Of a stretch of 64,000 bases of DNA, positions 831-62,521 are shown piece by piece. The stretch's first letter is position 1. Every line of letters starts with the position of its first letter. The position numbers and the translations under genes were made by a program. Source of the DNA: a virus (lineage: Duplodnaviria; Heunggongvirae; Uroviricota; Caudoviricetes); the IMG/VR virus record IMGVR_UViG_3300021963_000032, one strand, 5' to 3'. The notes below the pieces were generated by a model that did no database searches, was not told where the DNA came from, and saw nothing but the letters and a program-made list of their open reading frames with translations.

Positions 831-1063
831 TGGAAAACAACAAAATGCGTTACTTTATAACGACCTACACTAGCTTCTCACACAACCATGTGATTGCTTT
901 ATTGTCATCTAATGACGCAGAATACAGATTTATTGATTACCCAACAGAGGAGAGTTATAGTAAATTTGAAGTAATAAGCGACAGAGCAGCGTTTGAAATG
1001 TTGCGTGAAGCTTCAAAAGAAAATGACGGATCCGCTTTTACTTTAGAATATGGAACCTATTAA
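830..1063 (+). CDS. hypothetical protein
   Basis: ORF with ATGA overlap to the upstream gene, in a codirectional operon. Confidence 0.35.
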   Translation: MENNKMRYFITTYTSFSHNHVIALLSSNDAEYRFIDYPTEESYSKFEVISDRAAFEMLREASKENDGSAFTLEYGTY

Positions 1064-1544
1064 AATTATATGCCCGCATTGCGGAGGAGATCATTGCTTT
1101 GAGGAGAGTCAGACAATCCCAACACCAAACGGAGATTCAGAGCAAGAAGTAACTAGTTGGATGTGTACAGATTGTGGCTATACATCTACAACTCTAAACG
1201 AAGAGGGATCAGCTATAATCACTGAGTACGAAGAAGTAACAGCGGAGCTTATCAAAGACCTACGTTGGGTCAATCCAGCAGACAACTTGGTTTGGTATCC
1301 AATCGTACTGAACTTCCCTACATTTGGACTTATCTTCCCAGACGGAACAAGTGAGGCTGATTGGACGTGGATGGCAGCTCCTGCAGTGGATATTGCAGAG
1401 GAAAGTCAAAGTAACTTTCCAATCCCAGGACAACCAGGAAACTTCTACACTAGACGTGTAGACATGGAATCAGGAAAGCATTTCAGTAGAGATGAGTTTA
1501 CTCAAGCTTGCGAGTTTATTGGATTTATTCAATCAGGAAACTAA
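1050..1544 (+). CDS. hypothetical zinc-ribbon protein
   Basis: CPHCGG...CTDCGY forms a CxxC...CxxC pair. Confidence 0.4.
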   Translation: MEPIKIICPHCGGDHCFEESQTIPTPNGDSEQEVTSWMCTDCGYTSTTLNEEGSAIITEYEEVTAELIKDLRWVNPADNLVWYPIVLNFPTFGLIFPDGTSEADWTWMAAPAVDIAEESQSNFPIPGQPGNFYTRRVDMESGKHFSRDEFTQACEFIGFIQSGN

Positions 1545-5824: not shown

Positions 5825-6594
5825 TATCAGTTATAATACCAACGTACAAAAGCCCAGATGCTTTAGATTTATGTTTGCGATCTGCAATAGAAGGGCAGGC
5901 AGAGAAAAATCAGATCATAGTAGTAGTCGATGGATTCTACGAACTTAACAAACACGTACTAGACAAGTGGGCTGATTCAATTGATGTGCTCGATATGGAA
6001 GAGAATGTAGGATTGTGCAGAGGAACAAACCTAGGAGTGTACAATGCAGCTCACGATAAAATCCTAATCGTAAACGACGATAACGTATTCCCTCAGCATT
6101 GGGATACAATCTTGGAGGAGGAATGGGAAGAGGGAGCAGTCATTGCACCAAACCAAATAGAACCTTATGCAAGTATGTTTCCTCAGTTCATTATCGAAGA
6201 CTTGGGACGAGATCCTAAAACATTTGACTTAGAAGCTTTTTGGAGATTTAATTACCACTACGCTTCGGGGGATAAGAAAGATGAGAGTGGATCGACACTA
6301 CCTATTTATATGGCTAAGATGGACTACCTTCGACTAGGAGGTTGGGATGAAAACTATGAAATGGGAATGGTAGCAGATTGGGACTTCTTTTTGAAATGTA
6401 AGCTAAGCGGTCTAAAGATGGTTAGAAACTGGAACCTTCACTTCTACCACTTTGTATCGCTATCGACAGCAACTCCTGAGAAGATACAACAACGTAAGGA
6501 TACTGAAATAGCAGGACATGAGTATGCTAAGTATAAGTGGGGTGGATATATAAGAAACAAACGAGAAGATAATAGCAAAATTATAATCAAATAA
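5821..6594 (+). CDS. Glycosyltransferase family 2
   Basis: MISVIIPTYKSPDALDLCLRS...IIVVVDGF. Confidence 0.6.
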   Translation: MISVIIPTYKSPDALDLCLRSAIEGQAEKNQIIVVVDGFYELNKHVLDKWADSIDVLDMEENVGLCRGTNLGVYNAAHDKILIVNDDNVFPQHWDTILEEEWEEGAVIAPNQIEPYASMFPQFIIEDLGRDPKTFDLEAFWRFNYHYASGDKKDESGSTLPIYMAKMDYLRLGGWDENYEMGMVADWDFFLKCKLSGLKMVRNWNLHFYHFVSLSTATPEKIQQRKDTEIAGHEYAKYKWGGYIRNKREDNSKIIIK

Positions 6595-6597
6595 CTT

Positions 6598-6843
6598 ATG
6601 CAGTTCTTTCTACTTATGCCAGGCGATAAAGAAGAGGATACTCTTAACGAAGCCAACCTACTAGGTGAAACATCCTTCGGTACTTTCTGGGCAGGTACAG
6701 CCCTCAAGACTTTAATGACTATAGTCGATAAAGAGCCAGAGCTGTTGCAACACATTAGAATTGCTCAAGATATGTCAAAGGCTATATTCACCGTAGAGGA
6801 GTTTTTAACAGCTATTCAAAAACATAAAATCAGAATGAGATGA
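6598..6843 (+). CDS. hypothetical protein
   Basis: ORF. Confidence 0.3.
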   Translation: MQFFLLMPGDKEEDTLNEANLLGETSFGTFWAGTALKTLMTIVDKEPELLQHIRIAQDMSKAIFTVEEFLTAIQKHKIRMR

Positions 6844-6988
6844 AGTATTATTATTACTCAAAAGTAGATTCAACTAATGAGAAGCTTGGATCAGTTATAG
6901 CGTTAAGTAGACTAGGAGCAGCAAAAATGTTTGCTCAAAGAAAAAGACTTGACTTAAAATCCTTCCTTTCCGTGTATAGTATCAGTAG

Positions 6989-7498
6989 ATGAAACTATTT
7001 ATAGGAAAGAATGAGGGGGTGATGAAAATAGTAGTAACTCGGACAAACAAGAAGAAGCAGTCATATGAAGTGGCTGTTGTGGATGGAGTTACCTCAATTT
7101 ACAAAGAAACAGTCAGTGGAATCAAGAACCGTGATGAGGTTGTTTGGAAGTTGGCTGACCTATATGGTGCTATGGATATCGAGATTGTCGAACCTAAGCC
7201 GAGAGAGTTCAAGTTCTCTGAGATACCAAACATTCCAGTCCTAGATGAAGAGGAAGCTGAAGAGTACTTTGAGGATTGTGAAGAGGCAGTTTACGATAGA
7301 ATCGTTGTCGCAATTAAAGAAGGATTGCATACAAAGAGAAACGTTGTAAGGTTGTTTGAGCTTAACGGTACTGGAGTGTATCTTACCTCAGACAGATCAA
7401 ACTGGAAGGGTGGATTAGAACAAGTACTACAGCACTACATAAGAATTGAAGCATACGAAAAGTGTACAGCAGTACACAAGTTGATAGAAAAAATATAG
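6989..7498 (+). CDS. hypothetical protein
   Basis: ORF preceded by a GGAAAGAATGAGGGGGTG purine-rich stretch. Confidence 0.4.
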   Translation: MKLFIGKNEGVMKIVVTRTNKKKQSYEVAVVDGVTSIYKETVSGIKNRDEVVWKLADLYGAMDIEIVEPKPREFKFSEIPNIPVLDEEEAEEYFEDCEEAVYDRIVVAIKEGLHTKRNVVRLFELNGTGVYLTSDRSNWKGGLEQVLQHYIRIEAYEKCTAVHKLIEKI

Positions 7499-7500
7499 TT

Positions 7501-8124
7501 ATGAGAAAGTTTAGGTCTACGATACTACTCCAATCTCAGATTGAAGGAGCGATGAAGGTTACTCGATCAAATAGAGCAGCAGCTGAATATTTGAGAGTGA
7601 GTTTCAATATGTACAAAAGATATGCCAAGCGTTATATGAATGACCAAGGCATCTCACTATTCGAAGCGCACAAGAATCAAGCAGGAGTTGGAGTAACAAA
7701 GAATCGAGTAGCAGACTCAAGACACAAGGTAGACGACATCTTACTAGGTAAGCACCCCAACTACCCACCATACAAACTATTCAAAAGATTATTGCAGAGT
7801 GGTTATATTGAAGAGTGTTGCAAAAGCTGTGGGTACCACCAAAAGAGGCCAACAGATCTAAAAGCACCACTTGTAATGAATCACATCGATGGTGATAAGA
7901 CTAACCATAAGTTTGATAACCTAGAAGTGCTATGCTACAATTGCTACTTCGTATTGGTTGGGGATTTGAGAAAGACGTTACTGAGAGATTCCACCGAGAG
8001 ACCTGAGCAATATACTTCCGAACTATTTGATGGAGGACAAGACACACTCGATGCCATGGCAGGATTGGATCTACTCACAGATGAAGAAAAGCAAGCATTA
8101 ATTAATAGCCTAGGTACACTATGA
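7501..8124 (+). CDS. HNH endonuclease with N-terminal HTH-like region
   Basis: CKSCGY...NHIDGDKTNHKFDNLEVLCYNCY matches the HNH motif. The ATG at 7501 is immediately after the upstream stop. Confidence 0.6.
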   Translation: MRKFRSTILLQSQIEGAMKVTRSNRAAAEYLRVSFNMYKRYAKRYMNDQGISLFEAHKNQAGVGVTKNRVADSRHKVDDILLGKHPNYPPYKLFKRLLQSGYIEECCKSCGYHQKRPTDLKAPLVMNHIDGDKTNHKFDNLEVLCYNCYFVLVGDLRKTLLRDSTERPEQYTSELFDGGQDTLDAMAGLDLLTDEEKQALINSLGTL

Positions 8125-8570
8125 TAAGTACAAAAGAAATAGCAACTAGACGCATAAGAAAGATTGAGAAGAGATTAGTACCAAAGCTTAGGCATAAGAG
8201 ATGGTACAGAAAAGTAGTTGGAATATTATTAATCCCAGTTGCGCTAACCACACACGGCATTGACCTTCTTATAGAATACTATTACAAAAAGAAGCCTACC
8301 GTGAAAGGAACTAAGCATAGAATCAACTTAGGAAACATCATAGCAGGGTTTACAAACCTAGCGTTTCCAAATGAGGAGGTTGAAAAGATAGCACATAGTA
8401 GAGCTGAGATTTGTGCACGATGCCCTTTCGCAATGAAGACGGGAGTGTATAGTGTGGTTAAAGATAATCGTACAGTTACTATTCAAGGAATGAAGTGTAC
8501 TGAGTGCGGTTGCAATCTAAGTGCCAAAGTAAGAAGCATACACGACACATGCCCAGTAGGAAAGTGGTAA
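8121..8570 (+). CDS. hypothetical membrane-anchored Cys-rich protein
   Basis: N-terminal TM segment. CARCPF...CTECGC...CPVGKW cysteine cluster. Confidence 0.4.
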   Translation: MISTKEIATRRIRKIEKRLVPKLRHKRWYRKVVGILLIPVALTTHGIDLLIEYYYKKKPTVKGTKHRINLGNIIAGFTNLAFPNEEVEKIAHSRAEICARCPFAMKTGVYSVVKDNRTVTIQGMKCTECGCNLSAKVRSIHDTCPVGKW

Positions 8571-8809
8571 AAGGTCCTATAGGGATTCTGGTATTTGATG
8601 ACGAGTTTAATCATATTAAGTTTGTTGTGGATGTGTTGTCTCAGACATTTGGCTTTCCACCTACCCAAGCCTACCAGTGTGCAAACCTAATACATGAGAG
8701 AGGGTCTTATGTAGTTAAAACTCTAACGTATAAGGAGAAGCAGAAAGCTGAGCTACTTAGAAACATTCTTGTATCAAATGGGTTAATTGCTAAAATAATT
8801 CCTCTGTAA
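8549..8809 (+). CDS. clpS: ClpS-like ATP-dependent Clp protease adaptor
   Basis: ILVFDDEFNHIKFVVDVLSQTFGF...AYQCANLIHERGSYVV resembles the ClpS core (vilhNDdyTpmefVv-vL...lseeeAt-imlevHekG). The start is taken at an internal ATG. Confidence 0.5.
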   Translation: MPSRKVVKGPIGILVFDDEFNHIKFVVDVLSQTFGFPPTQAYQCANLIHERGSYVVKTLTYKEKQKAELLRNILVSNGLIAKIIPL

Positions 8810-8847
8810 CTGTTGCAGAATCGTTATCTATGTTGTATCTTTACGGC

Positions 8848-9771
8848 ATGAAAAACGAACAGAACCTAGGATATGCATGCATCAATATGCAGCTCCGTAA
8901 GCAAAACATTTTTACCGGTAGAACTTGTCGTAAAGCTACATTCCAAGAGAAGGGTTTAGATTACGTAGGCGAATTAGGATTGCAGAATGTCCGAGACTTA
9001 TATCAAATCGTCCAGTGGAACAGCCGCAATAACATTAAGATGTATCGTATCGGTTCAGATATCTTTCCGTGGCAGAGTGAGTATAAGTTGGAACAACTAC
9101 CTCAGTATACTAAGATTGTTAACTTGCTCAAAGCTATTGGAGACTATGTTACAAAAGATGGTCAACGACTATCATTCCATCCAGGGCCATTTAATATTCT
9201 AGGATCTACTAAGCCTGGTGTTGTTGAGCGTACTATTGTCGACCTGCAGAATCACTCAGAGATATTTGACTTAATGGGATTCGAACCTAGCCCGTACAAT
9301 AAGATTAACATCCACGTTGGAGCTACGTATGGTGATAAGGAGGGTACATTAGATCGCTGGTGTAATAACTTTAAGCGTCTCAATGAGAGAACACGGAAAC
9401 GCATCACATTAGAGAATGACGATAAGGAGAGTATGTATACGATTGTAGACCTACTATGGGCACACGAACGCGTTGGTGTTCCGTTGGTGTTTGATTACCA
9501 TCACCATAACTGCCACCCAGGAGATATTGATCAACAGACAGCTTTGCAATATGCAATGAGTACTTGGCCAGAGGGAATTAGACCAGCTGTGCATTATTCA
9601 TCTTCTCGTAGGCTAAACGAAGATAGCAGTGTCAAAGTACAAGCACATGCTGATTACATATACGAAAAGATTGATACGTTCGGTTATGATATTGATATCA
9701 TGTTGGAATGTAAAGCAAAGGAGCTTGCCTTGTTGGAATATCGAAAAAAACATAGTATATTAGTAGCATGA
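8848..9771 (+). CDS. uvdE: UV damage endonuclease (UvdE family)
   Basis: LGYACINMQL...KMYRIGSDIFPW...HPGPF...INIHVG matches UvdE. The start is taken at the ATG just after the promoter motif at 8813-8844. Confidence 0.6.
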   Translation: MKNEQNLGYACINMQLRKQNIFTGRTCRKATFQEKGLDYVGELGLQNVRDLYQIVQWNSRNNIKMYRIGSDIFPWQSEYKLEQLPQYTKIVNLLKAIGDYVTKDGQRLSFHPGPFNILGSTKPGVVERTIVDLQNHSEIFDLMGFEPSPYNKINIHVGATYGDKEGTLDRWCNNFKRLNERTRKRITLENDDKESMYTIVDLLWAHERVGVPLVFDYHHHNCHPGDIDQQTALQYAMSTWPEGIRPAVHYSSSRRLNEDSSVKVQAHADYIYEKIDTFGYDIDIMLECKAKELALLEYRKKHSILVA

Positions 9772-9882
9772 AAATTATAACAACAATAACTACATCAATC
9801 ATACACATACTAAGTGGGACGTGGTTAGTGTACGGAATCGTACGTATGGTAGTTAGAATACAAAACGCATTAAAGGATTAAT

Positions 9883-10152
9883 ATGAAACAAATAACAACC
9901 GGAATAGCAGTAACCTTGGCATTTATGTTGGGAATGTACATTTTAACAAAAGCTAAACCACGCTATCCAGAAAGTACACTATACCATTGTAGGGTGAATA
10001 AGGTAGTAGAAGAGTTTCCACATGGAGGTATCACACCAGATGTAAGGTATAGGTTAACAACAGATGAGGGCTTTGTAGTATTTTCGTACAACCGAGAATT
10101 TTCAGTAGGGGACTCAATCGAAGTCCGAGTAGTAAGAATAAGTAAACAATAA
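9883..10152 (+). CDS. hypothetical membrane protein
   Basis: N-terminal TM helix. Confidence 0.35.
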   Translation: MKQITTGIAVTLAFMLGMYILTKAKPRYPESTLYHCRVNKVVEEFPHGGITPDVRYRLTTDEGFVVFSYNREFSVGDSIEVRVVRISKQ

Positions 10153-10165
10153 AAACCAAATAAGT

Positions 10166-10393
10166 ATGTATTTTACAGTTTCAGTTAAAGTGTCATTCGA
10201 AGATGACAAAGGAAAAGTTAAGAAATCAGTTGAGCGTTACCTAGTAGACGCAATGTCAGTAACAGAAGCGGAAGCTAGAACAACAGAGTTCATGAAGTCA
10301 GATACACGTGACTCAGAGATCGTAGCTGTTAATCAGTCTCGTATTCTTGAAGTGATTAGTCCAAAGGAAACTCCTGATGTTTATGGAAAGTAA
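10166..10393 (+). CDS. hypothetical protein
   Basis: ORF. Confidence 0.35.
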   Translation: MYFTVSVKVSFEDDKGKVKKSVERYLVDAMSVTEAEARTTEFMKSDTRDSEIVAVNQSRILEVISPKETPDVYGK

Positions 10394-10607
10394 TTTTCAA
10401 CCTGATTCTATCGTACAAGCCGTTATTCAGCGGTTTGTCGATAGAGCCAAGTTTGGTCACGAGAAGTATGGAACTGACTTGGATAGAAAGGATCTAACAA
10501 TGGATGAGTGGATCCAACACGCTCAAGATGAATTGCACGATGGTATTCTATATCTTGAGAAAATAAAGCAAACTCTTAAAGAGTTTAACAAAACAATCAA
10601 TATTTAG
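10377..10607 (+). CDS. hypothetical protein
   Basis: ORF. Confidence 0.35.
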   Translation: MFMESNFQPDSIVQAVIQRFVDRAKFGHEKYGTDLDRKDLTMDEWIQHAQDELHDGILYLEKIKQTLKEFNKTINI

Positions 10608-12141: not shown

Positions 12142-12215
12142 GCTTTCTTAGCTCAGTTGGTAGAGCGCTTCACTTGTAATGAAGATGTCATCGGTTCGAC
12201 TCCGGTAGAAAGCTC
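12142..12215 (+). tRNA. tRNA-Thr(TGT)
   Basis: Hand-folded cloverleaf. GCTCAGTTGGTAGAGC D-arm, anticodon loop CTTGTAA, GGTTCGACTCC T-arm. Confidence 0.7.
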
Positions 12216-12249
12216 AGAACAAATGTTCTTTGACATATTGGCTTTAAAT

Positions 12250-12321
12250 TTTCCCCTCGTCTAATCGGCAGGACGTCTGGTTTTGGGCCAGAAGATCGAG
12301 GTTCGAACCCTTGGGGGAAAA
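12250..12321 (+). tRNA. tRNA-Gln(TTG)
   Basis: Acceptor TTTCCCC/GGGGAAA, anticodon loop TTTTGGG, T-loop TTCGAAC. Confidence 0.65.
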
Positions 12322-12328
12322 CAATAAT

Positions 12329-12412
12329 GGAAGTTTAATTAAGCTGGCGCTTAACCTAGTCTTGAAAACTAGTGGTACCGAAAGGTATGGGGATCGATAC
12401 CTCAGGCTTCCT
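12329..12412 (+). tRNA. tRNA-Ser(TGA), type II
   Basis: Acceptor GGAAGTT/GGCTTCC, anticodon loop CTTGAAA, long variable arm. Confidence 0.55.
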
Positions 12413-12539
12413 CTAAATCAATACAGAGTTGAATGATACGAGCCTCCAAAGTTCGAAAGGAGTCATGGTTTGATTGAAGCGAGCAACTGTGCGCTATACA
12501 AAAAGTGTTTGCATTCGGCAAATACTACACAGTTGACAA

Positions 12540-12612
12540 CTAGGTGTGGGAAAGTTGGTAATCCGCGTGGTTTGGGACCACGAGACCGCAGGTTCGAGCC
12601 CTGCCACTTAGA
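12540..12612 (+). tRNA. tRNA-Pro(TGG)
   Basis: Anticodon stem CGTGG/CCACG, loop TTTGGGA, T-arm GCAGGTTCGAGCCCTGC. Confidence 0.65.
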
Positions 12613-12681
12613 CTATTTTTTAATCACTAAAACCCCAGAAATTATGGAAAGTGACAAGAGCGACAAGAGTCGCAAACAGCC

Positions 12682-12755
12682 GATCTCGTAGCTCAGTTGG
12701 CTAGAGCACCTCACTTTTAATGAGGGAGTCGTGGGTTCGAGCCCCACCGGGATCA
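12682..12755 (+). tRNA. tRNA-Lys(TTT)
   Basis: Acceptor GATCTCG/CGGGATC, anticodon loop CTTTTAA. Confidence 0.7.
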
Positions 12756-12764
12756 CAAACAAAT

Positions 12765-12837
12765 GCTCCTTTAGCTCAGTTGGTAGAGCGCTGCCCTTAC
12801 ATGGCAGATGTCGCAAGTTCGAGCCTTGCAGGGAGTA
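12765..12837 (+). tRNA. tRNA-Val(TAC)
   Basis: Anticodon stem CTGCC/GGCAG, loop CTTACAT. Confidence 0.65.
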
Positions 12838-12847
12838 CAAATAATAT

Positions 12848-12931
12848 GCCGTAGCGCTGAAGTTGGAGAGTCGGGGCAGACTGTAAATCTGTTGTCGTAA
12901 GGCTGAGTAGGTTCGAATCCTACCTGCGGCA
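12848..12931 (+). tRNA. tRNA-Tyr(GTA), long variable arm
   Basis: Acceptor GCCGTAG/CTGCGGC, anticodon loop CTGTAAA, T-arm GTAGGTTCGAATCCTAC. Confidence 0.65.
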
Positions 12932-12936
12932 CAATT

Positions 12937-13008
12937 GGACAAGTAGCTCAGGGGTAGAGCAAGCGACTGTTAATCGCTGGGTCGGAGGTTCGATCCCTCC
13001 CTTGTCCG
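12937..13008 (+). tRNA. tRNA-Asn(GTT)
   Basis: Acceptor GGACAAG/CTTGTCC, anticodon loop CTGTTAA. Confidence 0.7.
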
Positions 13009-13166
13009 CAATGATATAATGTTGGGTTTCCTGGTAGTAACGGTATTAACCATGGTAAGTAAGCTACAAGATTCTAGTAATAAGCACCAGATGGATTCCG
13101 TGCGACTAAAGTATCAATAGTTTTAAGGGTGGCTCTAGTTCTATAAAAACGTAATTGCCTCCACCA

Positions 13167-13240
13167 GCGCTTATAGCTCAATTGGTTAGAGCACCCGCCT
13201 GATACGCGGAAGGTTATTGGTTCGATTCCAGTTAAGCGCA
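13167..13240 (+). tRNA. tRNA-Ile(GAT)
   Basis: Acceptor GCGCTTA/TAAGCGC, anticodon loop CTGATAC. Confidence 0.7.
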
Positions 13241-13298
13241 CAAAAAGAGGAATAACTAGTGTGGGTGCCTCAACTGCTGCAGCAGTACCACACTCAAT

Positions 13299-13384
13299 GG
13301 AGAGTAAACCTTGATGGCGATAGGGCTTGCCTGCTAAGCAATGTGTACCCGTAAGGGTATTTGGTTCGATTCCAATGCTCTCCG
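13299..13384 (+). tRNA. Probable type II tRNA, tentatively Ser(GCT)
   Basis: Acceptor GGAGAGT/GCTCTCC, T-arm TTGGTTCGATTCCAA, candidate anticodon loop CTGCTAA. The D-arm is atypical. Confidence 0.4.
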
Positions 13385-13389
13385 CAGCA

Positions 13390-13460
13390 TGCCGTAGGTC
13401 CTGGGTGGACGAGGTGGGCTCATATCCTGCTTTGGATTGGTTCGAACCCAATATACGGTA
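13390..13460 (+). tRNA. tRNA-Met/Ile2 family (CAT), copy 1
   Basis: Anticodon loop CTCATAT, T-arm ATTGGTTCGAACCCAAT. The acceptor pairing is slightly irregular. Confidence 0.5.
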
Positions 13461-13470
13461 CAACAAAGGT

Positions 13471-13635
13471 ATGATGAATATGAAAAAAGTAATAACAGGA
13501 AGTTTCGAATCATCGAGAGATGTACTTCGAGGAAAGGCTCCATCGCCCAAAGGACGATTGGACTGGCGTGGTCAGGCCGTACAAGTTTACAACAAGTTCG
13601 CTAAGAAGTTGACTAAACGTAAGTCAGCGTTGTGA
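13471..13635 (+). CDS. Small basic protein (54 aa) embedded in the tRNA array
   Basis: ATG preceded by AAAGG. The product is MMNMKKVITGSFESSRDVLRGKAPSPKGRLDWRGQAVQVYNKFAKKLTKRKSAL. A strong terminator follows immediately. Confidence 0.35.
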   Translation: MMNMKKVITGSFESSRDVLRGKAPSPKGRLDWRGQAVQVYNKFAKKLTKRKSAL

Positions 13636-13640
13636 ATTGA

Positions 13641-13670
13641 CCCTCCCCACTTACGGAGTGGGGTTTTTTT
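13641..13670 (+). terminator. Rho-independent terminator
   Basis: CCCTCCCCACttacgGAGTGGGG followed by TTTTTTT. Confidence 0.65.
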
Positions 13671-13674
13671 AAAT

Positions 13675-13748
13675 GGTGGTTGTAGCTCAATCGGAAGAGC
13701 GCCAGATTGTGATTCTGGAGGTAGTGGGATCGAAACCCACCATTCACC
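13675..13748 (+). tRNA. tRNA-His(GTG) with encoded G-1
   Basis: Anticodon stem CCAGA/TCTGG, loop TTGTGAT. An extra 5' G pairs with the C discriminator. Confidence 0.6.
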
Positions 13749-13754
13749 CAATAT

Positions 13755-13840
13755 GCCTCGGTGGTGAAATTGGTAAACACGCTGGATTTAAGCTCCAGTG
13801 GGCAGTAATGTCCTTGCGGGTTCGAGCCCCGCCTGAGGTA
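13755..13840 (+). tRNA. tRNA-Leu(TAA), type II
   Basis: Anticodon stem CTGGA/TCCAG, loop TTTAAGC, long variable arm, T-arm GCGGGTTCGAGCCCCGC. Confidence 0.65.
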
Positions 13841-13989
13841 CTAAAGATGATACAAAGCGTAGAATGGTAAGCGTGGAGAGACGTGGCGCAAGGGTACACA
13901 CTAAGGATAAGCAATCAGTGCTCAACTCTCTAATGGTGTGTGAAGCCACTGAGGCAAGATTCCTGATAAAGCCATTTATCATCTTTTTT

Positions 13990-14061
13990 GCCCACATAGT
14001 TCAATGGATAGAACGTCCGGCTACGAACCGGGAGATAGGAGTTCGAATCTCTTTGAGGGTA
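13990..14061 (+). tRNA. tRNA-Arg(ACG)
   Basis: D-arm GTTCAATGGATAGAAC, anticodon stem TCCGG/CCGGG, loop CTACGAA. Confidence 0.6.
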
Positions 14062-14066
14062 CAAAT

Positions 14067-14139
14067 GCCCCTATAGTTCAACTGAATAGAACATCCCCCT
14101 TCTAAGGGGAAGATTGGAGTTTGACTCTCTGTGGGGGTA
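14067..14139 (+). tRNA. tRNA-Arg(TCT)
   Basis: Anticodon stem TCCCC/GGGGA, loop CTTCTAA. The T-loop TTTGACT is atypical. Confidence 0.5.
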
Positions 14140-14176
14140 CGATCCGATGTGTGATCCGAGCTAGGTCGGATAATTT

Positions 14177-14249
14177 ACTCCAGTAGCTCAGTTGGTAGAG
14201 CACCGGATTCCAAATCCGGGTGTCGGAGGTTCGAGTCCTTCCTGGTGTG
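14177..14249 (+). tRNA. tRNA-Trp(CCA)
   Basis: Anticodon stem CCGGA/TCCGG, loop TTCCAAA, T-arm GGAGGTTCGAGTCCTTC. Confidence 0.65.
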
Positions 14250-14317
14250 CATAAGACGGGAGGCGAGTGTTGAGGGTACAACCGTTAGGATACCTCAGCC
14301 AAGTCCTCCCCGAAGAA

Positions 14318-14390
14318 GGACAGGTAGCTCAGTCGGTAGAGCACGGCGCTGAAGACGCTGGTGTCGGGGGTTCGAATCCCTCTCTGTCCA
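14318..14390 (+). tRNA. tRNA-Phe(GAA)
   Basis: Acceptor GGACAGG/TCTGTCC, anticodon loop CTGAAGA. Confidence 0.7.
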
Positions 14391-14395
14391 CAAAT

Positions 14396-14465
14396 GCTCA
14401 GGTTGATCTTGGAGGTCGGTAGGTCTGCAAAACTTACAGAGTTGGTTCGATTCCAACCTTGAGCT
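14396..14465 (+). tRNA. tRNA-Cys(GCA), compact 70 nt
   Basis: Acceptor GCTCAGG/CTTGAGC, anticodon stem TAGGT/ACTTA, loop CTGCAAA, short D-arm. Confidence 0.55.
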
Positions 14466-14509
14466 CAAAAATAATTGTTCATAACTTTGTAATTATTTTG
14501 ATATAACTG

Positions 14510-14546
14510 TTGCAAACACCACAACAATGGAGTATCTTTAGGTATA
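14510..14546 (+). promoter_or_regulatory. Conserved phage promoter motif (TTGCA...TATCTTTAGGTATA) driving the tRNA sub-cluster
   Basis: CTGTTGCAAACACC...AGTATCTTTAGGTATAAG, preceded by the GTTCATAACTTT upstream element. Confidence 0.55.
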
Positions 14547-14591
14547 AGAAAGAGCAAAGGAGTTCATTGACGTAGTGGTAAACAAACAAAC

Positions 14592-14679
14592 AGTCAGGTG
14601 ATAGTAATTGGTAACTGCGGTGGTGCGTTAAGAGCGCTTAATATCCATCGGATTACAGGTTCGAGTCCTGTCCTGACTA
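14592..14679 (+). tRNA. Non-canonical tRNA-like element, 88 nt, anticodon unresolved (possibly Leu-like type II)
   Basis: Perfect acceptor AGTCAGG/CCTGACT and canonical T-arm ACAGGTTCGAGTCCTGT. The internal region (GGTGG...21 nt...CCATC) does not fold into a standard anticodon arm. Confidence 0.4.
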
Positions 14680-14699
14680 TAAAAAAGTTAACAAAAGTG

Positions 14700-14730
14700 T
14701 TGACTTATCGAAACAAAAGGAGTATATTTA
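14700..14730 (+). promoter_or_regulatory. Promoter variant (TTGAC...TATATTTA) with duplicated leader GTTCATTGACATAGTGGTAAACAAACAAAC
   Basis: Near-duplicate of the 14510-14591 promoter-leader unit, placed upstream of the second tRNA sub-cluster. Confidence 0.5.
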
Positions 14731-14765
14731 TAAAAGTTCATTGACATAGTGGTAAACAAACAAAC

Positions 14766-14847
14766 GCGCGAGTGGTGGAATTGGTAGACACGCCGGATTT
14801 AGGATCCGGTGCCGAAGGGTTTGAGGGTTCGAGTCCCTCCTTGCGTA
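14766..14847 (+). tRNA. tRNA-Leu(TAG), type II
   Basis: Anticodon stem CCGGA/TCCGG, loop TTTAGGA, long variable arm, T-arm GAGGGTTCGAGTCCCTC. Confidence 0.65.
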
Positions 14848-14943
14848 CAAAAAGATCAACTAGTCACTGTAATCAATCAGTGGGCGTCAGTAAGTATTCT
14901 GAGCGACGTTTAAATCCTGACAGCAATGTTGATTTTTTATTTT

Positions 14944-15017
14944 GCAGGCATAGCTCAATTGGCTAGAGCACTAGCCTTCCAAGCTGGGGGTTGTGGGTTC
15001 GAGTCCCACTGCCTGCT
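14944..15017 (+). tRNA. tRNA-Gly(TCC), with 3' CCA encoded
   Basis: Acceptor GCAGGCA/TGCCTGC, anticodon loop CTTCCAA, T-arm GTGGGTTCGAGTCCCAC followed by TCCA. Confidence 0.7.
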
Positions 15018-15022
15018 CCAAT

Positions 15023-15096
15023 GGGGGATTAGCTCAGCTGGCTAGAGCACTGCACTTGCACTGCAGGGGTCAACGGTTCGAATCCGTTATCCTCCA
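15023..15096 (+). tRNA. tRNA-Ala(TGC)
   Basis: Anticodon stem CTGCA/TGCAG, loop CTTGCAC, T-arm AACGGTTCGAATCCGTT. Confidence 0.7.
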
Positions 15097-15101
15097 CAAT
15101 T

Positions 15102-15173
15102 GGTCCATTGGTGTAGTGGCTAACATACCACCCTGTCACGGTGGTGCCGCGAGTTCGATTCTCGCATGGACCG
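15102..15173 (+). tRNA. tRNA-Asp(GTC)
   Basis: Acceptor GGTCCAT/ATGGACC, anticodon loop CTGTCAC. Confidence 0.7.
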
Positions 15174-15183
15174 CAAACAATAC

Positions 15184-15255
15184 GCTGCCATCGTCTAACG
15201 GTTAGGACCTATGGTTTTCATCCATAAAATCGGAGTTCGATTCTCCGTGGCAGTA
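15184..15255 (+). tRNA. tRNA-Glu(TTC)
   Basis: TCGTCTAACGGTTAGGAC D-arm, anticodon stem TATGG/CCATA, loop TTTTCAT. Confidence 0.7.
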
Positions 15256-15350
15256 CAAAGATCGGAGTAATTAACCGATCCTAACAAGTAAGTATGCATA
15301 TAGCTTAAAGAGATTTGACGTCACTAATTTCTGCATGCTTCTCTTGATTA

Positions 15351-15426
15351 ACTACTTATGGTGTAAATTGGTTTGCACACGGGTCACACGGCCCGAGGGT
15401 TATAGGTTCGAGTCCTATGGGTAGTT
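15351..15426 (+). tRNA. tRNA-like with atypical anticodon loop, identity unresolved
   Basis: Acceptor ACTACTT/GGGTAGT and T-arm ATAGGTTCGAGTCCTAT are canonical. The anticodon stem CGGG/CCCG encloses a 6- or 8-nt loop (T)CACACG(G). Confidence 0.35.
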
Positions 15427-15432
15427 CAACAT

Positions 15433-15505
15433 AGCGGGGTGGAGAAGATGGTATTCTCGGCGGGCTCATAACCCGAGGACGCTGGTTCGAGTCCGGCCCC
15501 CGCTA
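15433..15505 (+). tRNA. tRNA-Met/Ile2 family (CAT), copy 2
   Basis: Acceptor AGCGGGG/CCCCGCT, D-stem GAGA/TCTC, anticodon loop CTCATAA. Confidence 0.6.
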
Positions 15506-15601
15506 CAAATACGTAAACCTAAGTACCCATACCGCTCACGGTGGGCTAAGTAAGATACAATTTCGTACTGCGGGAAGTAGAATGCTTAGGAGCGTGTTTA
15601 C

Positions 15602-15684
15602 GGCTAGGAGTGTAAAAGGCGTCGGTGCTGATTCCATCTGTTGAAGATGGTTGCTCATTGTAGGTTCGAATCCTATCCTAGCTG
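15602..15684 (+). tRNA. Putative type II tRNA-like element, anticodon unresolved
   Basis: Acceptor GGCTAGG/CCTAGCT and T-arm GTAGGTTCGAATCCTAT. The internal hairpin CCATCtgttgaaGATGG could be the anticodon arm (TTG) or the variable arm. Confidence 0.3.
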
Positions 15685-15689
15685 CAGAG

Positions 15690-15763
15690 GGTCCTTTAGC
15701 TCAGTTGGTTAGAGCAGCTCGCTCATAACGAGAAGGTCCCAGGTTCGAATCCTGGATGGACCA
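15690..15763 (+). tRNA. tRNA-Met/Ile2 family (CAT), copy 3
   Basis: GCTCAGTTGGTTAGAGC D-arm, anticodon loop CTCATAA, T-arm CCAGGTTCGAATCCTGG. Confidence 0.6.
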
Positions 15764-15772
15764 CACAAAAAG

Positions 15773-17664: not shown

Positions 17665-19650
17665 ATGAAACATATTAGTACAATTCTATTTGTATTGATC
17701 TTTGCTACAAGCTTTGGTCAGTACTGTCCTGCATTAGGACCAGATCAACTCCTTCCATGTGGGTTAGGAACAACGACGTTAACAGCTGACCTATCTCAGT
17801 GTGGACCTGGAGGACCTTCTCCAAAACAAACCACGGATTACCTAGTTAGTAGTATTCCCTATGTTGCTCAAGCTAACACGGGTACTAACATATTCATGAC
17901 AGATGATTCTCAGCAAGGACCTTTTAATATAGGATTCAACTTTTGCTTCTTCGGATCAACCTATACTCAATTCTATATAGGATCGAATGGTTGGATATCT
18001 TTCTCAGGAGGGCAGCCAACTACATTTACCTCTTCACCAATTCCAACAGCAAACCCTCTAGTACCTAAGAATTGTGTAATGGGGCCATGGCAGGATTGGC
18101 ATCCAGGACTTGGTGGTCAGATTAAATATCAAACAACTGGAGTAGCTCCATGTAGAAAATTAACAGTAAGTTGGATAGGTGTACCTATGTTTAGTTGTAC
18201 GGGAAACCAAGGAACATTCCACATTGTGGTCTATGAGTCAACTAACGCAATCGAAACCTATATTCAAGATAAACCTGCATGTACACAGTGGCAAGGTGGT
18301 ACCGCAGTAGAAGGTATACACAATACAGCTGGTTCAATAGGGATAGCCGTTCCTGGAAGAAACTCCACAGCATGGACTGCAAACAATGATGCTTGGAGGT
18401 GGACTCCAAATGGTCCTCTAGTTAATCCAGTACTGACTTGGTACCAGGTAGGTAATCCAGTAGCTATTGGAACTGGACCATCTATAACAGTCACACCACC
18501 CGCTGCAGGTGCTCAGTATACTTGTCGTTTTGTTTATCCTATTTGTAATGTAGGATGGGCTACTTGTAATGCTTTTGCAGGATTGGGACCAGATACAGTA
18601 TTCGTACAACCTGGACCTCCGTATCCAGTAGTAAGTCCAATTGCAGGTTCAGATACTCTATGTTCGTATTCAACAAATGAGCTATATACAATTATCAATC
18701 AACCTGGAGTAAATTACTTATGGGACGCTGTTGGGACTATTACGTCAGGTCAAGGTGCAGATAGCATTACTATTGATTGGAATGCAATTGCTCCAGGATT
18801 CATTCCTGGTGGGGTTATGGTTACTCCGGAAGCAAATGGTTGTGTAGGTGCACCTGCTTCTTTTGATTTATTTATACTAGATGTTGTTCCAATTATTCAA
18901 CCGATAGGACCATTCTGCGAATATGACGATAGCACTCAGCTAGTTGGTAATCCATTAGGTGGAGCATTCTCAGGAGTAGGAGTTTCTAATACTTACTTCA
19001 ATCCACAAAACGCAGCTGGCGTTGATACAATTACTTATACATACACTCTCAGTGGCTGTACGTTTGATACAACAACTCTTGTTACCGTGTACCCAAAACC
19101 TACCTTAGATTCTATTACTCCTCACAATACATTCTTTGAGATATGTGAGCTAGAAGTGGCCACAATAACATGGGATGCAGATGGTTATCCTGCAAATGGA
19201 TATACGGAGTGGACTTGGTTAGGACAGAATACTCAGCAACCATTATTATCTGTAACAGTACCTTGGGATTCAGCAGGAACATATAATGTGTCTGCAGTCT
19301 ATTGGGCTAATGGTTGTGTGTCGGATCCACAAACTGCTTACATCACAGTAATTCAGTGTCCGGAAACTTTATTCTATATTCCTAATTCATTTACACCAGA
19401 TGGTAACGAATGGAATCAAGTATGGCAACCTATAATTACTAGTGGGATAGATCCATACAACTATCAGGTGTTGGTGTACAATCGTTGGGGAGAAGTTGTA
19501 TTTGAGTCTCACGACATTGAAGTTGGATGGGATGGAACTTATAAAGGTAGGCCATGCATGGAAGGTGTATACTTTTACATAGTAAGCTGTACCGATACTA
19601 AAACAGCTAAGAAGTTTAACCTACAAGGACATATTTCTTTATTAAAATAA
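17665..19650 (+). CDS. Secreted Cys-rich protein with T9SS type-B C-terminal sorting domain (gliding-motility-associated CTD)
   Basis: Signal peptide MKHISTILFVLIFATSFGQ. The C-terminus FYIPNSFTPDGNEWNQVW...YNRWGEVVFES...GWDGTYKG matches the TIGR04131-like CTD motif. Confidence 0.55.
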   Translation: MKHISTILFVLIFATSFGQYCPALGPDQLLPCGLGTTTLTADLSQCGPGGPSPKQTTDYLVSSIPYVAQANTGTNIFMTDDSQQGPFNIGFNFCFFGSTYTQFYIGSNGWISFSGGQPTTFTSSPIPTANPLVPKNCVMGPWQDWHPGLGGQIKYQTTGVAPCRKLTVSWIGVPMFSCTGNQGTFHIVVYESTNAIETYIQDKPACTQWQGGTAVEGIHNTAGSIGIAVPGRNSTAWTANNDAWRWTPNGPLVNPVLTWYQVGNPVAIGTGPSITVTPPAAGAQYTCRFVYPICNVGWATCNAFAGLGPDTVFVQPGPPYPVVSPIAGSDTLCSYSTNELYTIINQPGVNYLWDAVGTITSGQGADSITIDWNAIAPGFIPGGVMVTPEANGCVGAPASFDLFILDVVPIIQPIGPFCEYDDSTQLVGNPLGGAFSGVGVSNTYFNPQNAAGVDTITYTYTLSGCTFDTTTLVTVYPKPTLDSITPHNTFFEICELEVATITWDADGYPANGYTEWTWLGQNTQQPLLSVTVPWDSAGTYNVSAVYWANGCVSDPQTAYITVIQCPETLFYIPNSFTPDGNEWNQVWQPIITSGIDPYNYQVLVYNRWGEVVFESHDIEVGWDGTYKGRPCMEGVYFYIVSCTDTKTAKKFNLQGHISLLK

Positions 19651-23256: not shown

Positions 23257-24540
23257 ATGAATAATCTCGATAAACAGTACACCACACTACTCCAAGACAT
23301 ATTGGACAATGGAGTAACCAAACAAGATCGCACTGGTACTGGAACAGTATCTGTATTTGGTAGACAAATTAGACATAAGATGTCAGAAGGGTTTCCTTTA
23401 CTTACAACTAAGAAGATGCCATTTAAACTTATAGCAACAGAGCTGATGTGGTTCCTTCGTGGTGATACAAACATTAAATTTCTAGTAGACAACAACTGTC
23501 ATATTTGGGATGGCGATGCTTATAAAGCGTATGAACAATGGTATGAACATATGAGTAAAACCACACCATTTACTGTACCTAAAAGGTTTACACAAGATGA
23601 GTTGATTAAGGCAATTAGTCTTGATGAGTATCATGCTAAGCATTTTGGCGAGTTAGGTCCAATTTATGGTAAGCAATGGAGAAAGTGGTCATATGAAGCT
23701 GGTGAAGTTAATAAAGGTGGTATAGACCAAATCGCAAACCTAATCAACGACCTTAAAACAAACCCAGACTCTAGGCGTTTAATGGTTAATGCTTGGAATG
23801 TTGGTGAATTGGATTCAATGGTTCTCCCACCTTGTCATTATGGATTTCAAGTTTATACAAGGGAGTTGAGTTTAGATGAAAGAGGCGAATTATTTAGAAA
23901 AACTTACCCAGATAAATCAGTTAGTGATTTCGCTCCACAAGGAATGGAAGTACAATCACTAAGCCACCAACTATATACAAGATATAATAATGCAAATATT
24001 CCAACCAGAGCAATCTCTTTAATGTGGAATCAGCGTTCAGTAGATACATTCTTAGGTTTACCATTCAACATTGCATCTTATGGATTGTTATTGGAAATAA
24101 TTGCTAAAGCAGTTAATATGGTTCCAGATGAATTGATCGGTAACTTGGGTGATACACATTTGTATTTGGATCATATTGAACAAGCAAAGGAACAGATTGG
24201 CAAAAAACTAGATCTAGATGAACGACAAGCAATGGTCACCCAAGAAATGTTTAATCAAATATATAATGCTGGAGACAGTAGCACATTAACACATTCTGAA
24301 ATTGATCAATGGGACATTCCAAGAATCAAAACCAGAGAACCCTATCCACTACCAACTTTAAATATCAATACAGAATTTTGGCCAACAGAATCTGGAGAGT
24401 GTGGTGTAGGTCCTATTGATGCGACAGCAGTATTTGCAGGGTTCGCTAACGATCATTTCTGCAAGTGTCTGTTGGAAGAAGACTTGCAACTAGGCAACTA
24501 TAAATCACACCCACACATTAAAGCACCTTTATCAAATTAA
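23257..24540 (+). CDS. thyA: Thymidylate synthase family (ThyA / pyrimidine hydroxymethylase-like), enlarged to 427 aa
   Basis: DRTGTGTVSVFG, FPLLTTKKMPFK, ELMWFLRGDTN and the catalytic VLPPCHYGFQVY motif. Large insertions make it longer than canonical 264-316 aa ThyA. Confidence 0.65.
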   Translation: MNNLDKQYTTLLQDILDNGVTKQDRTGTGTVSVFGRQIRHKMSEGFPLLTTKKMPFKLIATELMWFLRGDTNIKFLVDNNCHIWDGDAYKAYEQWYEHMSKTTPFTVPKRFTQDELIKAISLDEYHAKHFGELGPIYGKQWRKWSYEAGEVNKGGIDQIANLINDLKTNPDSRRLMVNAWNVGELDSMVLPPCHYGFQVYTRELSLDERGELFRKTYPDKSVSDFAPQGMEVQSLSHQLYTRYNNANIPTRAISLMWNQRSVDTFLGLPFNIASYGLLLEIIAKAVNMVPDELIGNLGDTHLYLDHIEQAKEQIGKKLDLDERQAMVTQEMFNQIYNAGDSSTLTHSEIDQWDIPRIKTREPYPLPTLNINTEFWPTESGECGVGPIDATAVFAGFANDHFCKCLLEEDLQLGNYKSHPHIKAPLSN

Positions 24541-27827: not shown

Positions 27828-28577
27828 ATGCCAAAGATTTACAAAGTAGGAGGTTGCGTTAGGGATACGTTTCTAGGTATTGATTCGAAGGATATTGATT
27901 TTACCTTTGTGTTAGATAACATTGACAGATCCGTAGAGGAAGGGTTTCAGATAATGACTGAGTACCTAGAACATAAGGGATTCACAATCTTCTTATCGAC
28001 TCCACAGATGTTTACAATTAGAGCTAAGTTCCCAAGTACAGACGGACCTTATGCTAGATACTGCGGTATGGTTGCAGACTTTGTGTTAGCGAGAAAGGAA
28101 GTTGGATATGTTCCAGGAACGAGACAACCGATTCTTGAGTTAGGTACGTTAGAAGATGACCTTATTAGAAGAGACTTCACTCTGAATGCACTAGCTGTAG
28201 ATGAGGACGGAAATCTAATTGATCTTTTCAATGGCGTTAACGATCTAAAGGTAGGCTTACTCAGAACTCCATTAGATCCAAAAGTCACAATGATGGATGA
28301 TCCATTGAGGTTTTTAAGAGCTTTGAGGTTTAGTATCACTAAAGACTTTACGATTGCTCTTGAGATATTCGATGCTATACAAAACCAACCTGAGATTCTA
28401 GAGAAGCTAGAAAAAGTAGTCTCTGCAGAGAGAATTAGAGAAGAGGTTTTCAAAATGATGAATGCTGACACTGTAAAGACTTTGGAGTTGTTTAGAATCG
28501 TAGAAGAGATGGTTCCAGGATTCACTAAGCTAGTATTCAGCAAAGGTCTATGGTTGAAACCAACATTTGAACAATAA
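27828..28577 (+). CDS. cca: Class II nucleotidyltransferase: CCA-adding enzyme / poly(A) polymerase head domain
   Basis: VGGCVRDTFLGIDSKDIDF and RRDFTLNAL signatures. Confidence 0.65.
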   Translation: MPKIYKVGGCVRDTFLGIDSKDIDFTFVLDNIDRSVEEGFQIMTEYLEHKGFTIFLSTPQMFTIRAKFPSTDGPYARYCGMVADFVLARKEVGYVPGTRQPILELGTLEDDLIRRDFTLNALAVDEDGNLIDLFNGVNDLKVGLLRTPLDPKVTMMDDPLRFLRALRFSITKDFTIALEIFDAIQNQPEILEKLEKVVSAERIREEVFKMMNADTVKTLELFRIVEEMVPGFTKLVFSKGLWLKPTFEQ

Positions 28578-28595
28578 ATAAATACACAATAAGAA

Positions 28596-32532: not shown

Positions 32533-32568
32533 TTGCATAAACGAATAGGAAGGAGTATCTTTAGGTAT
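32533..32568 (+). promoter_or_regulatory. Conserved phage promoter (TTGCA-N22-CTTTAGGTATAA)
   Basis: Family motif upstream of the ATG at 32584. Confidence 0.55.
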
Positions 32569-32583
32569 AAACAAAAGCAAGTT

Positions 32584-62105: not shown

Positions 62106-62485
62106 GGGGCTGCTTTGGCTTTGACAAGCAGACGCGTTCTTTGAGATGATGCAAGCAGGGTTAGATGGAAACCCTTAAACACCTATCACAACATAAATGC
62201 AAACGTAGAACTTTCTACATGGACCTTCGAAGATGTTATGGCATTCGTAGGTGGTGAATTAGCAGTAGCTGCATAGTCGCTCCCGTATCACTCATGGGAC
62301 ATTAAATAGAAGTGAACGAAAGAGTACATCTCGCTGACTCATTAAATAAGAGTGGGGAACATTGGTCCGATTGACGATGTTGAAGAACTGATCGGTATTT
62401 TGTCTAGTTAGAAAACGAGACTAAGCTTGTGAACGAGTCTGTTTGAATATCTGTTTGGACGAGGGTTCGACCCCCTCCAGCTCCA
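62106..62485 (+). ncRNA. ssrA: tmRNA (SsrA)
   Basis: 5' GGGGCTG...GACAAGCAGACGCG and 3' GGACGAGGGTTCGACCCCCTCCAGCTCCA form a tRNA-like acceptor and T-arm. The internal tag ORF ...GCATTCGTAGGTGGTGAATTAGCAGTAGCTGCATAG encodes ...AFVGGELAVAA* ending in the typical LAxAA. Confidence 0.6.
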
Positions 62486-62521
62486 CTATCTCTCGTGTCG
62501 AAAGGCACAACTTGTGTGTTA

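Follow-up and report, generated by a model that had tools for sequence, protein, structure and literature searches.

Can a ClpS-like protein encoded by a phage deliver N-degron substrates to the proteolytic machinery of its host, or does it act on that machinery in some other way? The question is raised by an open reading frame (ORF) at positions 8549 to 8809 on the + strand of a 64,000-nucleotide stretch of caudovirus DNA (IMG/VR record IMGVR_UViG_3300021963_000032); this whole stretch is referred to here as the window, and the product of the ORF as the window protein. The ORF begins with ATG, ends with the stop codon TAA at 8807-8809, and encodes 86 amino acids (aa), MPSRKVVKGPIGILVFDDEFNHIKFVVDVLSQTFGFPPTQAYQCANLIHERGSYVVKTLTYKEKQKAELLRNILVSNGLIAKIIPL, which include the two strings, ILVFDDEFNHIKFVVDVL and AYQCANLIHERGSYVV, on which an earlier note on this DNA had based its recognition of a ClpS core. 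That note described the gene as a phage-encoded N-degron adaptor of a kind not commonly described among phage accessory genes. In our analysis, the homology to the ClpS family and the location in a phage genome were upheld; the role of canonical N-degron adaptor and the supposed rarity were not. We propose instead, at a probability of roughly 40%, that the window protein is a competitor or modulator of the host ClpA/ClpC-ClpP system rather than a delivering adaptor.

A ClpS-family gene of a large phage

The Pfam profile for ClpS (PF02617) matched residues 13 to 65 of the window protein with a score of 42.5 bits, against a gathering cutoff of 23 (E = 5.5e-11). The matched core, which comprises strand 1, helices 1 and 2, and strand 2, is encoded by 8585-8743 (+). 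This was the profile check named in the earlier note, and PF02617 is carried by all close homologues as well. When the window protein was used as the query against PDB sequences, both phmmer and a profile search returned ClpS chains as the best matches. An AlphaFold2 model built with 12 homologues has a mean predicted local distance difference test (pLDDT) score of 86.5 and the element order E-H-H-E-H-E, as in ClpS; residues 1 to 10 of the model have a pLDDT of about 60. A Foldseek search against the PDB gave ClpS for all of the top 38 matches, with template modeling (TM) scores of 0.71 to 0.83 and E values of 1e-6 to 5.5e-4; these included chains from E. coli, Caulobacter, Mycolicibacterium, Arabidopsis, Agrobacterium, and Plasmodium. 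Ribosomal L7/L12 (bL12), which has a related fold, first appeared at rank 39 (E = 4.3e-3; TM score, 0.66), and a Pfam scan of the window protein gave no L7/L12 match.

More narrowly defined families were matched weakly. Two PHROGs profiles aligned with the core only, phrog_27368 with an E value of 1.7e-5 (25.8 bits) and phrog_15940 with an E value of 1.9e-3 (19.1 bits); such scores place the window protein at some distance from both families and not among their typical members. All nine cutoffs of the NCBIfam ClpS equivalogs (NF000668 to NF000672 and NF009562 to NF009565) were missed, the best model giving 23.5 bits against a cutoff of 86 and the other eight giving 14 to 20 bits against cutoffs of 107 to 160.

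Comparison with a 93%-identical homologue gave 22.8 synonymous and 7.2 nonsynonymous differences and a ratio of nonsynonymous to synonymous proportions (pN/pS) of 0.09; for a 79%-identical homologue, pN was 0.13 and pS was 0.83. The identical ClpS-like gene is found in two independent public metagenome assemblies, and its surroundings are those of a large phage. We conclude that the ORF at 8549-8809 is a genuine ClpS-family gene of a phage and that it is under purifying selection.

The 5' end of the gene has two candidate start codons. ATG 8549 is the start used by gene callers in identical public contigs, and an in-frame GTG at 8564-8566 (+) would give an 81-aa product beginning MVKGP. As the earlier note observed, the start overlaps the upstream gene (8121-8570, +); the overlap is 22 nucleotides (nt) from ATG 8549 and 7 nt from GTG 8564. 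The sequence at GTG 8564, together with the upstream stop codon, reads GTGGTAA, and ATGGTAA in relatives. In four relatives (L001 to L004) the orthologue is called from an ATG that aligns with GTG 8564 (GGAAAATGGTAA), and all relatives are start-capable at both codons, the first being ATG or TTG and the second ATG or GTG. Because the second codon is also fixed by the invariant Lys-Trp codons of the upstream protein, the sequence does not settle the choice between 8549 and 8564. A scan of 6400-10400 for promoters and terminators gave counts no different from the shuffled expectation.

N-terminal tail and N-degron pocket

In the HMMER alignment, I13 of the window protein stands opposite E. coli V30, which places the beginning of the core (E. 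coli residue 26 onward) at about residue 9. The core is thus preceded by about 8 residues, MPSRKVVK, from ATG 8549 or by 3, MVK, from GTG 8564, and the tail is basic; the E. coli ClpS extension, in contrast, has 25 residues and is acidic and disordered. Alignment to E. coli ClpS, the tail statistics given below, and the low pLDDT of the first residues together delimit a short basic tail, MPSRKVVKGP, encoded by 8549-8578 (+). The statistics come from an exhaustive profile search of 1.84 billion representatives, with the column of E. coli Y28 taken as the end point of each tail. In the canonical hits (n = 63) the median tail was 24 residues long, with a net charge of -4, whereas 55 short proteins (70 to 92 aa), together with the close family, had a median tail of 6 to 7 residues with a net charge of +3, typically MVKKKxK.

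The length of this segment is central to what ClpS does in E. coli. As summarized in PMC8666677, 6 extension residues (20 to 25) support formation of the ClpS-ClpA complex, 9 residues (17 to 25) support inhibition of ssrA substrates, and N-degron delivery needs a minimum of 14 residues (12 to 25), the length rather than the sequence being critical. By cryo-electron microscopy, the pore loops of ClpA are seen to hold the ClpS extension (PMC9663308). The window protein falls short of the extension of at least 14 residues in the E. coli paradigm and, judged by its alignment, is without a usable pull handle by the E. coli standard. It shares with truncated E. coli ClpS laboratory constructs a core with few or no extension residues. 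Those constructs are gammaproteobacterial and act on ClpA; the window protein, in contrast, is natural, is 17 to 18% identical to E. coli ClpS in structural alignments, and presumably faces a Bacteroidota unfoldase.

Phages are already known to carry ClpS, and the description of the gene as uncommon could not be maintained: a search with E. coli ClpS gives homologues in no fewer than 27 phage records of GenBank, and many of these homologues carry the annotation ClpS. Most of the records are from jumbo phages of 284 to 490 kb, including the Pseudomonas phage PA5oct group, Cronobacter phage GAP32, Atu_ph07, Sinorhizobium phage Phosso, the Yersinia fHe-Yen9 phages, and a Vibrio phage; a few hits are to short or incomplete records. 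BFVD holds 8 viral entries with the ClpS fold, and PHROGs has two ClpS families (27368 and 15940). Jumbo-phage ClpS was mentioned, and an N-degron adaptor role proposed for it, in the jumbo-phage review of Iyer et al. (2021), and gp708 is listed as ClpS in the paper on Agrobacterium phage Atu_ph07; a full-text literature search returned no experimental study of any phage ClpS homologue. Like the window protein, jumbo-phage ClpS is encoded by very large phages with many accessory genes for translation and proteostasis. Unlike the short-tailed window protein, the jumbo-phage proteins checked are 94 to 177 aa long, have about 16 or more residues ahead of the core, and show the canonical N-D-D...H where examined: ClpS has 100 aa in PA5oct (about 17 residues before the matched core), 99 aa in Phosso, 177 aa in GAP32, and 94 aa in the huge phage LR756504. 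The last of these has about 23 residues before the core and the N-D-D...H motif, and its 39% identity to the window protein represents a weak similarity. From these comparisons, the short basic-tailed form is a variant separate from the phage ClpS already known. In PA5oct (L097 903-1752) and Phosso (L099 315-1761), the ClpS gene lies close to a (small) heat-shock gene, which suggests a proteostasis module that is absent around the window gene.

The pocket of the window protein departs less from that of bacterial ClpS than the tail does. The motif D17-D18-E19-F20-N21-H22-I23, encoded by 8597-8617 (+), stands opposite E. coli N34-D35-D36-Y37-T38-P39-M40, and over the whole pocket the alignment pairs E. 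coli N34/D35/D36/T38/M40/M62/H66 with D17/D18/E19/N21/I23/A45/H49. The codon of H49, the counterpart of the α-amino contact H66, lies at 8693-8695 (+). Four of the five pocket residues considered (N34, D35, D36, T38, which is N in non-proteobacterial ClpS, and H66) are identical or class-typical in the window protein; Asn at position 38 and Ala at position 62 are the norm among non-proteobacterial ClpS. The single unusual change is that of N34 to Asp, at a position that is Asn in 95% of canonical hits. Since the pocket residues are largely class-typical, the window copy looks able to bind an N-terminal residue.

With bacterial ClpS (E. coli YljA/ClpS and the C. crescentus, M. smegmatis, and A. 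thaliana ClpS1 proteins) the window protein has in common not only family and fold but also QAxQCA in helix 2, Gly52, YxVK in strand 2, and the α-amino contacts D35, D/E36, N38, and H66. Unlike them, it has Asp at position 34 and a 3-residue insertion in helix 3, misses the equivalog cutoffs, and has no clpA or aat neighbor.

The same positions are variable among the phage relatives. The motif columns read N 95%, D 98%, [DE] 88%, N 92%, and F 90% in canonical hits, versus D 58%/N 41%, D 100%, E 66%/D 33%, N 100%, and I 83% in the close phage family. Histidine occupies the H66 position in 88% of the canonical hits, 58% of the close family, and 43% of the distant short family, and the positional orthologues of sister phages have H, Q, N, E, D (in L114), or M (in L104) there. 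The complete pattern, [ND]34-D35-[DE]36-[NT]38-H66, is present in 46 of 63 canonical proteins (73%), in 12 of 55 distant short proteins (22%), and in 6 of 11 close members. In L104 (3450-3716; also in L105 and L106), the positional orthologue is an 88-aa protein beginning MVGKKRLKPITHIVRVVMDTQEPYTI, which scored 47 bits against the family profile; its residues at positions 34, 36, and 66 are M, T, and M, and it has no recorded Pfam ClpS hit. Several members of the phage family likewise fall below recognition by Pfam ClpS. In these alignments, the α-amino contact positions are relaxed across the phage family, though D-D-E-x-N...H is kept in the window copy. Conservation of the N-degron-binding residues, which the earlier note had singled out for checking, is therefore mixed: the window copy keeps most of them (D17/D18/E19/N21/H49), but orthologues vary at H66, and one loses N34, D36, and H66. 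Because orthologues lose H66, and one of them also N34 and D36, a role conserved across the family could not be canonical N-degron delivery.

Synteny, genome context, and host

In every readable context but one, the ClpS-like gene directly follows a homologue of the 149-aa Cys-rich protein encoded upstream of it at 8121-8570. These contexts cover the close homologues P0001, P0004, and P0009 and, among the distant ones (26 to 45% identity), the P0014 cluster, P0016, P0037, and P0059; the exception, P0161 (103 aa), has a different phage-like neighborhood. The gene order is nearly constant, with a glycosyltransferase cluster followed by genes for proteins of 81, 50, and 169 aa, an HNH-like protein of about 207 aa, a protein of 145 to 151 aa, the ClpS-like protein, UvdE, DUF4494, and a DksA/TraR-type zinc finger protein. 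The neighbors of the gene in the window are accordingly an HNH-like gene, the 149-aa Cys-rich gene, and, downstream at 8830-9771 (+), the gene for the UV damage endonuclease UvdE (Pfam UvdE, 216.8 bits).

Against this stable background, the ClpS-like gene diverges rapidly. The ClpS-like protein of L007 is 26% identical, versus 43 to 59% for seven neighbors; that of L009 is 34% identical, versus 56 to 60% for three neighbors, and the Cys-rich protein there is also low, at 31%. The nonsynonymous divergence (dN) of the ClpS-like gene is 0.77 to 0.79, compared with 0.34 to 0.70 for the neighbors (0.34 to 0.48 without the 149-aa gene), and in distant relatives its divergence is about 1.6- to 2.3-fold above that of the neighbors. 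In a widespread sister lineage (L100 to L103), the same gene order is found with the ClpS gene absent between a 146-aa Cys-rich gene and UvdE, which are separated by only 52 nt (e.g., L100 3441-3494); since this lineage does without it, the ClpS-like gene is a dispensable accessory gene.

A scan of 185,579 cellular (GTDB) genomes with the conserved patterns of the family found no relatives, and the region had no megablast match among GenBank phages. The single tblastn match of the window protein was the canonical ClpS of a 636-kb huge phage. An IMG/VR scan found one contig with a relative, IMG/VR scans with two distant family members found no contig, and a metagenome scan found 7 further loci with relatives. 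Taken together, gene order and these scans indicate that the family is one syntenic, dispensable positional gene restricted to one freshwater phage lineage. In one contig (L005 7603-8231; IMGVR_UViG_3300008267_005425), the upstream protein lacks the C-terminal Cys cluster, the ClpS-like frame has no ATG, GTG, or TTG before the position of window-protein residue 26, and the ORF is listed only from 8046; this junction could be a deletion, a pseudogene, or an assembly error.

The N-terminal part of the 149-aa upstream protein is predicted to be made of helices and includes a hydrophobic segment, and its C-terminal domain is rich in Cys and highly conserved (C98, C101, C126, C129, C131, and C144; motif ...IQGMKCxxCGCNLSAKVRSxxDxCPxGKW). 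The protein has at least 49 metagenome homologues, and an identical copy is recorded on contigs of up to 170.5 kb; it matched no Pfam family above threshold and had no structural homologue in Foldseek (best E = 0.39). The idea that it forms a two-gene cassette with the ClpS-like gene was considered and rejected: its homologue adjoins UvdE without a ClpS gene in L100 to L103, conservation of its C-terminal domain far exceeds that of the ClpS-like gene, and it offers no structural homologue. It is a syntenic neighbor, not a required partner.

No clpA or aat gene adjoins the ClpS-like gene, and a Pfam scan of 34 other window proteins (64 kb of phage genome) found no Clp unfoldase, ClpP, or leucyl/phenylalanyl (L/F)-transferase (aat). 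A canonical protein with a long extension from the same profile search, P0052, has a cellular context and adjoins a gene for PF03588 (Leu_Phe_trans). The earlier note had also connected the gene with N-terminal-peptide protein families of the window; this link was not reproduced, as an all-versus-all BLASTP comparison of the + strand ORFs with 60 aa or more detected no pair of paralogues with an E value below 1e-4.

The window is a one-strand gene array with a G+C content of about 39%. A tRNA array at 12142-15764 (+), where the G+C content rises locally to 46% versus about 39% elsewhere, contains 23 genes for 19 amino acids (no Ser), with three tRNA-Met(CAT) genes. A transfer-messenger RNA (tmRNA) gene lies at 62106-62488 (+; Rfam RF00023, 98.6 bits), and its tag peptide was given by ARAGORN as ANVELSTWTFEDVMAFVGGELAVAA. 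ClpAP of E. coli degrades proteins that carry the ssrA tag, and ClpS inhibits this degradation (PMC9663308); the occurrence of a tmRNA and a ClpS-like gene in the same phage may be more than coincidence.

Other genes in the window encode thymidylate synthase, nicotinamide phosphoribosyltransferase (NAMPT), a phosphoribosyl pyrophosphate (PRPP)-synthetase-like protein, RNA and DNA ligases, a CCA-adding-type nucleotidyltransferase, a MoxR-type ATPase, and glycosyltransferases. A PRPP-synthetase/phosphoribosyltransferase-like gene (32533-33441) and the NAMPT gene (34399-35910, +) form an NAD salvage pair. The gene for the nucleotidyltransferase, of the CCA-adding/poly(A) polymerase family (27828-28577, +), is followed by that for an RNA ligase with a PHA02142 OB domain (28596-29735), and the two look like a tRNA repair module (27828-29735). 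The thymidylate synthase (23257-24540, +) has 427 aa, compared with the 266 positions of the Pfam model; since residues 6 to 317 cover model positions 1 to 225, it would have insertions and/or a C-terminal addition. A 164-aa protein encoded at 1050-1544 (+) gave a subthreshold match to the Lar restriction alleviation family (22 bits versus a cutoff of 28.6).

Megablast found no near-identical phage in GenBank. For a 745-aa window protein, the matches were limited to Microcystis phage Mel-JY01 and a metagenomic huge phage of 484 kb, apart from a weak similarity to a Bacteroides phage. The host is indicated by a 661-aa protein (17665-19650, +) that ends in a CHU_C sorting domain of the type IX secretion system (T9SS) and is apparently built for export by the T9SS of the host. 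Its relatives, 34 to 63% identical, were found at 80 genome loci, nearly all titled as Bacteroidota metagenome-assembled genomes (MAGs), many of them from lakes; the titles name Crocinitomicaceae, Flavobacteriales, Chitinophagales, and Sphingobacteriales. Because the relatives of this CHU_C protein are nearly all from Bacteroidota MAGs, the host is most likely a freshwater member of the Bacteroidota.

Possible roles of the window protein

In E. coli, the unfoldase pulls on the ClpS extension to take the substrate. A stand-alone ClpS core such as the window protein might dock on a ClpA/ClpC-type unfoldase of the host and/or on N-degron-bearing proteins; having no long extension, the docked core would be unable to complete the hand-over of substrate, and the stalled core could divert or block host Clp proteolysis during infection, for example, shielding phage proteins. 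Docking on the Clp unfoldase, the inhibitory outcome, and any target are steps that we infer. Modulation or blocking seems more likely than a normal adaptor role because the long flexible tail is absent. A functional precedent for such a role comes from phage SPO1. Its Gp53, a small (25-kDa), adaptor-like protein from the host takeover module, was shown by Mulvenna et al. (2019; PMC6873191) to bind B. subtilis ClpC and to stimulate its ATPase; Gp53 changes what ClpCP degrades, which favors phage development. A stronger form of the proposal, which we put forward tentatively and with the odds well against it, is that short basic-tailed ClpS proteins are phage "anti-adaptors," cores that have lost the pull handle and would occupy the N domain of ClpA/ClpC or keep hold of N-degron substrates and never pass them on to the pore.

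Several points weigh against the proposal of a competitor or modulator. The requirement for 14 residues was established for E. coli ClpA alone, and the ClpA or ClpC of Bacteroidota may behave differently. The best-scoring NCBIfam model, NF000668, spans only 77 positions, and extensionless cellular ClpS may therefore exist and still act as adaptors. The contacts of E. coli ClpS with the N domain of ClpA include E79, E82, and K84 on helix 3 (PMC12493166); helix 3 of the window protein has a 3-residue insertion, and the mapping of these contacts, to K62, E68, and L70 with MAFFT, shifts with the alignment. E82 and K84 are not conserved in the canonical non-proteobacterial hits either.

These points bear on the first alternative, that the window protein is a conventional N-degron adaptor that delivers proteins with destabilizing N termini to host ClpAP or ClpCP and thereby retargets host proteolysis, as was proposed for jumbo-phage ClpS by Iyer et al. 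(2021). The window copy would be equipped for this in so far as D18, E19, N21, and H49 are kept, the replacement of N34 by D17 is conservative, a hydrophobic pocket is present (V15, I23, V26, A45, I48, and L79), and P10 adjoins the core in the manner of the junction prolines in canonical ClpS; the 77-position model, with its hint of short cellular ClpS, and the restriction of the extension rule to E. coli ClpA also speak for it. We nevertheless consider this role unlikely. With 3 to 8 residues, the tail falls short of the 14 that delivery requires in E. coli, positional orthologues have replaced H66 by Q, N, E, D, or M and in one case lost the whole triad, and the full pocket pattern remains in 73% of canonical ClpS but in only 22% of the distant members. 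The scores are also far from the equivalog range (23.5 versus 86 bits at best), and there is no clpA or aat neighbor, whereas canonical P0052 adjoins the Leu/Phe-transferase gene. Two features that define canonical adaptors are thus lacking from the window gene as we read it, namely, the extension and either equivalog-level scores or a canonical neighborhood, and the designation "N-degron adaptor" in the earlier note goes beyond what a segment of at most about 8 residues before the core, and orthologues without H66, would allow.

Less probable again is the reuse of the ClpS fold outside the Clp system, in which the protein would bind a phage or host protein or, through its basic tail, nucleic acid or the ribosome, as the C-terminal domain of L7/L12 does. 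The degenerate pocket and fast divergence of the family, the members missed by Pfam ClpS, the conservation of a Lys/Arg-rich tail in place of the acidic extension, and the dispensability of the gene in one sister lineage are all consistent with this, and proteins with the L7/L12 C-terminal domain are known in other phages (BFVD). However, the window copy scores above the Pfam ClpS threshold and keeps the ClpS-specific D-D-E-x-N...H, the Foldseek E value favors ClpS over L7/L12 by more than 3 orders of magnitude, and no result points to an alternative partner. Finally, there is next to no probability that the ORF is without function and represents what is left, decaying or untranslated, of a clpS gene captured from a host: although the gene is small, starts inside the upstream gene, is absent from one sister lineage, and appears damaged at its start in L005, it is under strong purifying selection, keeps both its position and an intact frame in lineages with as little as 26% identity, and has a confidently predicted fold.

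The consequences depend on which of these roles applies. An ordinary adaptor would be one more annotated accessory gene of a large phage. The value of the window protein as a putative competitor or modulator of host ClpA/ClpC-ClpP lies in its natural extensionless architecture and relaxed pocket, which together yield a specific, testable mechanistic hypothesis. Phage proteins that control host proteolysis include T4 PinA and lambda cIII; overall, few cases of such control are known, SPO1 Gp53 being one of them (PMC6873191). A naturally extensionless ClpS core would be a test of whether the "pull on the extension" model of delivery in E. coli is general, and it could uncover a simple means by which a virus blocks or diverts an AAA+ protease. 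Protein sequencing makes use of engineered ClpS proteins to bind N-terminal amino acids, and the phage family, as a naturally diversified set of pockets for N-terminal residues, may have practical interest. Should the short basic-tailed proteins indeed be anti-adaptors, the N-degron pathway of the host, or ClpA/C-ClpP more broadly, would be switched off during infection, and the rapid evolution of the pocket would be a sign of adaptation to varied targets in host or phage.

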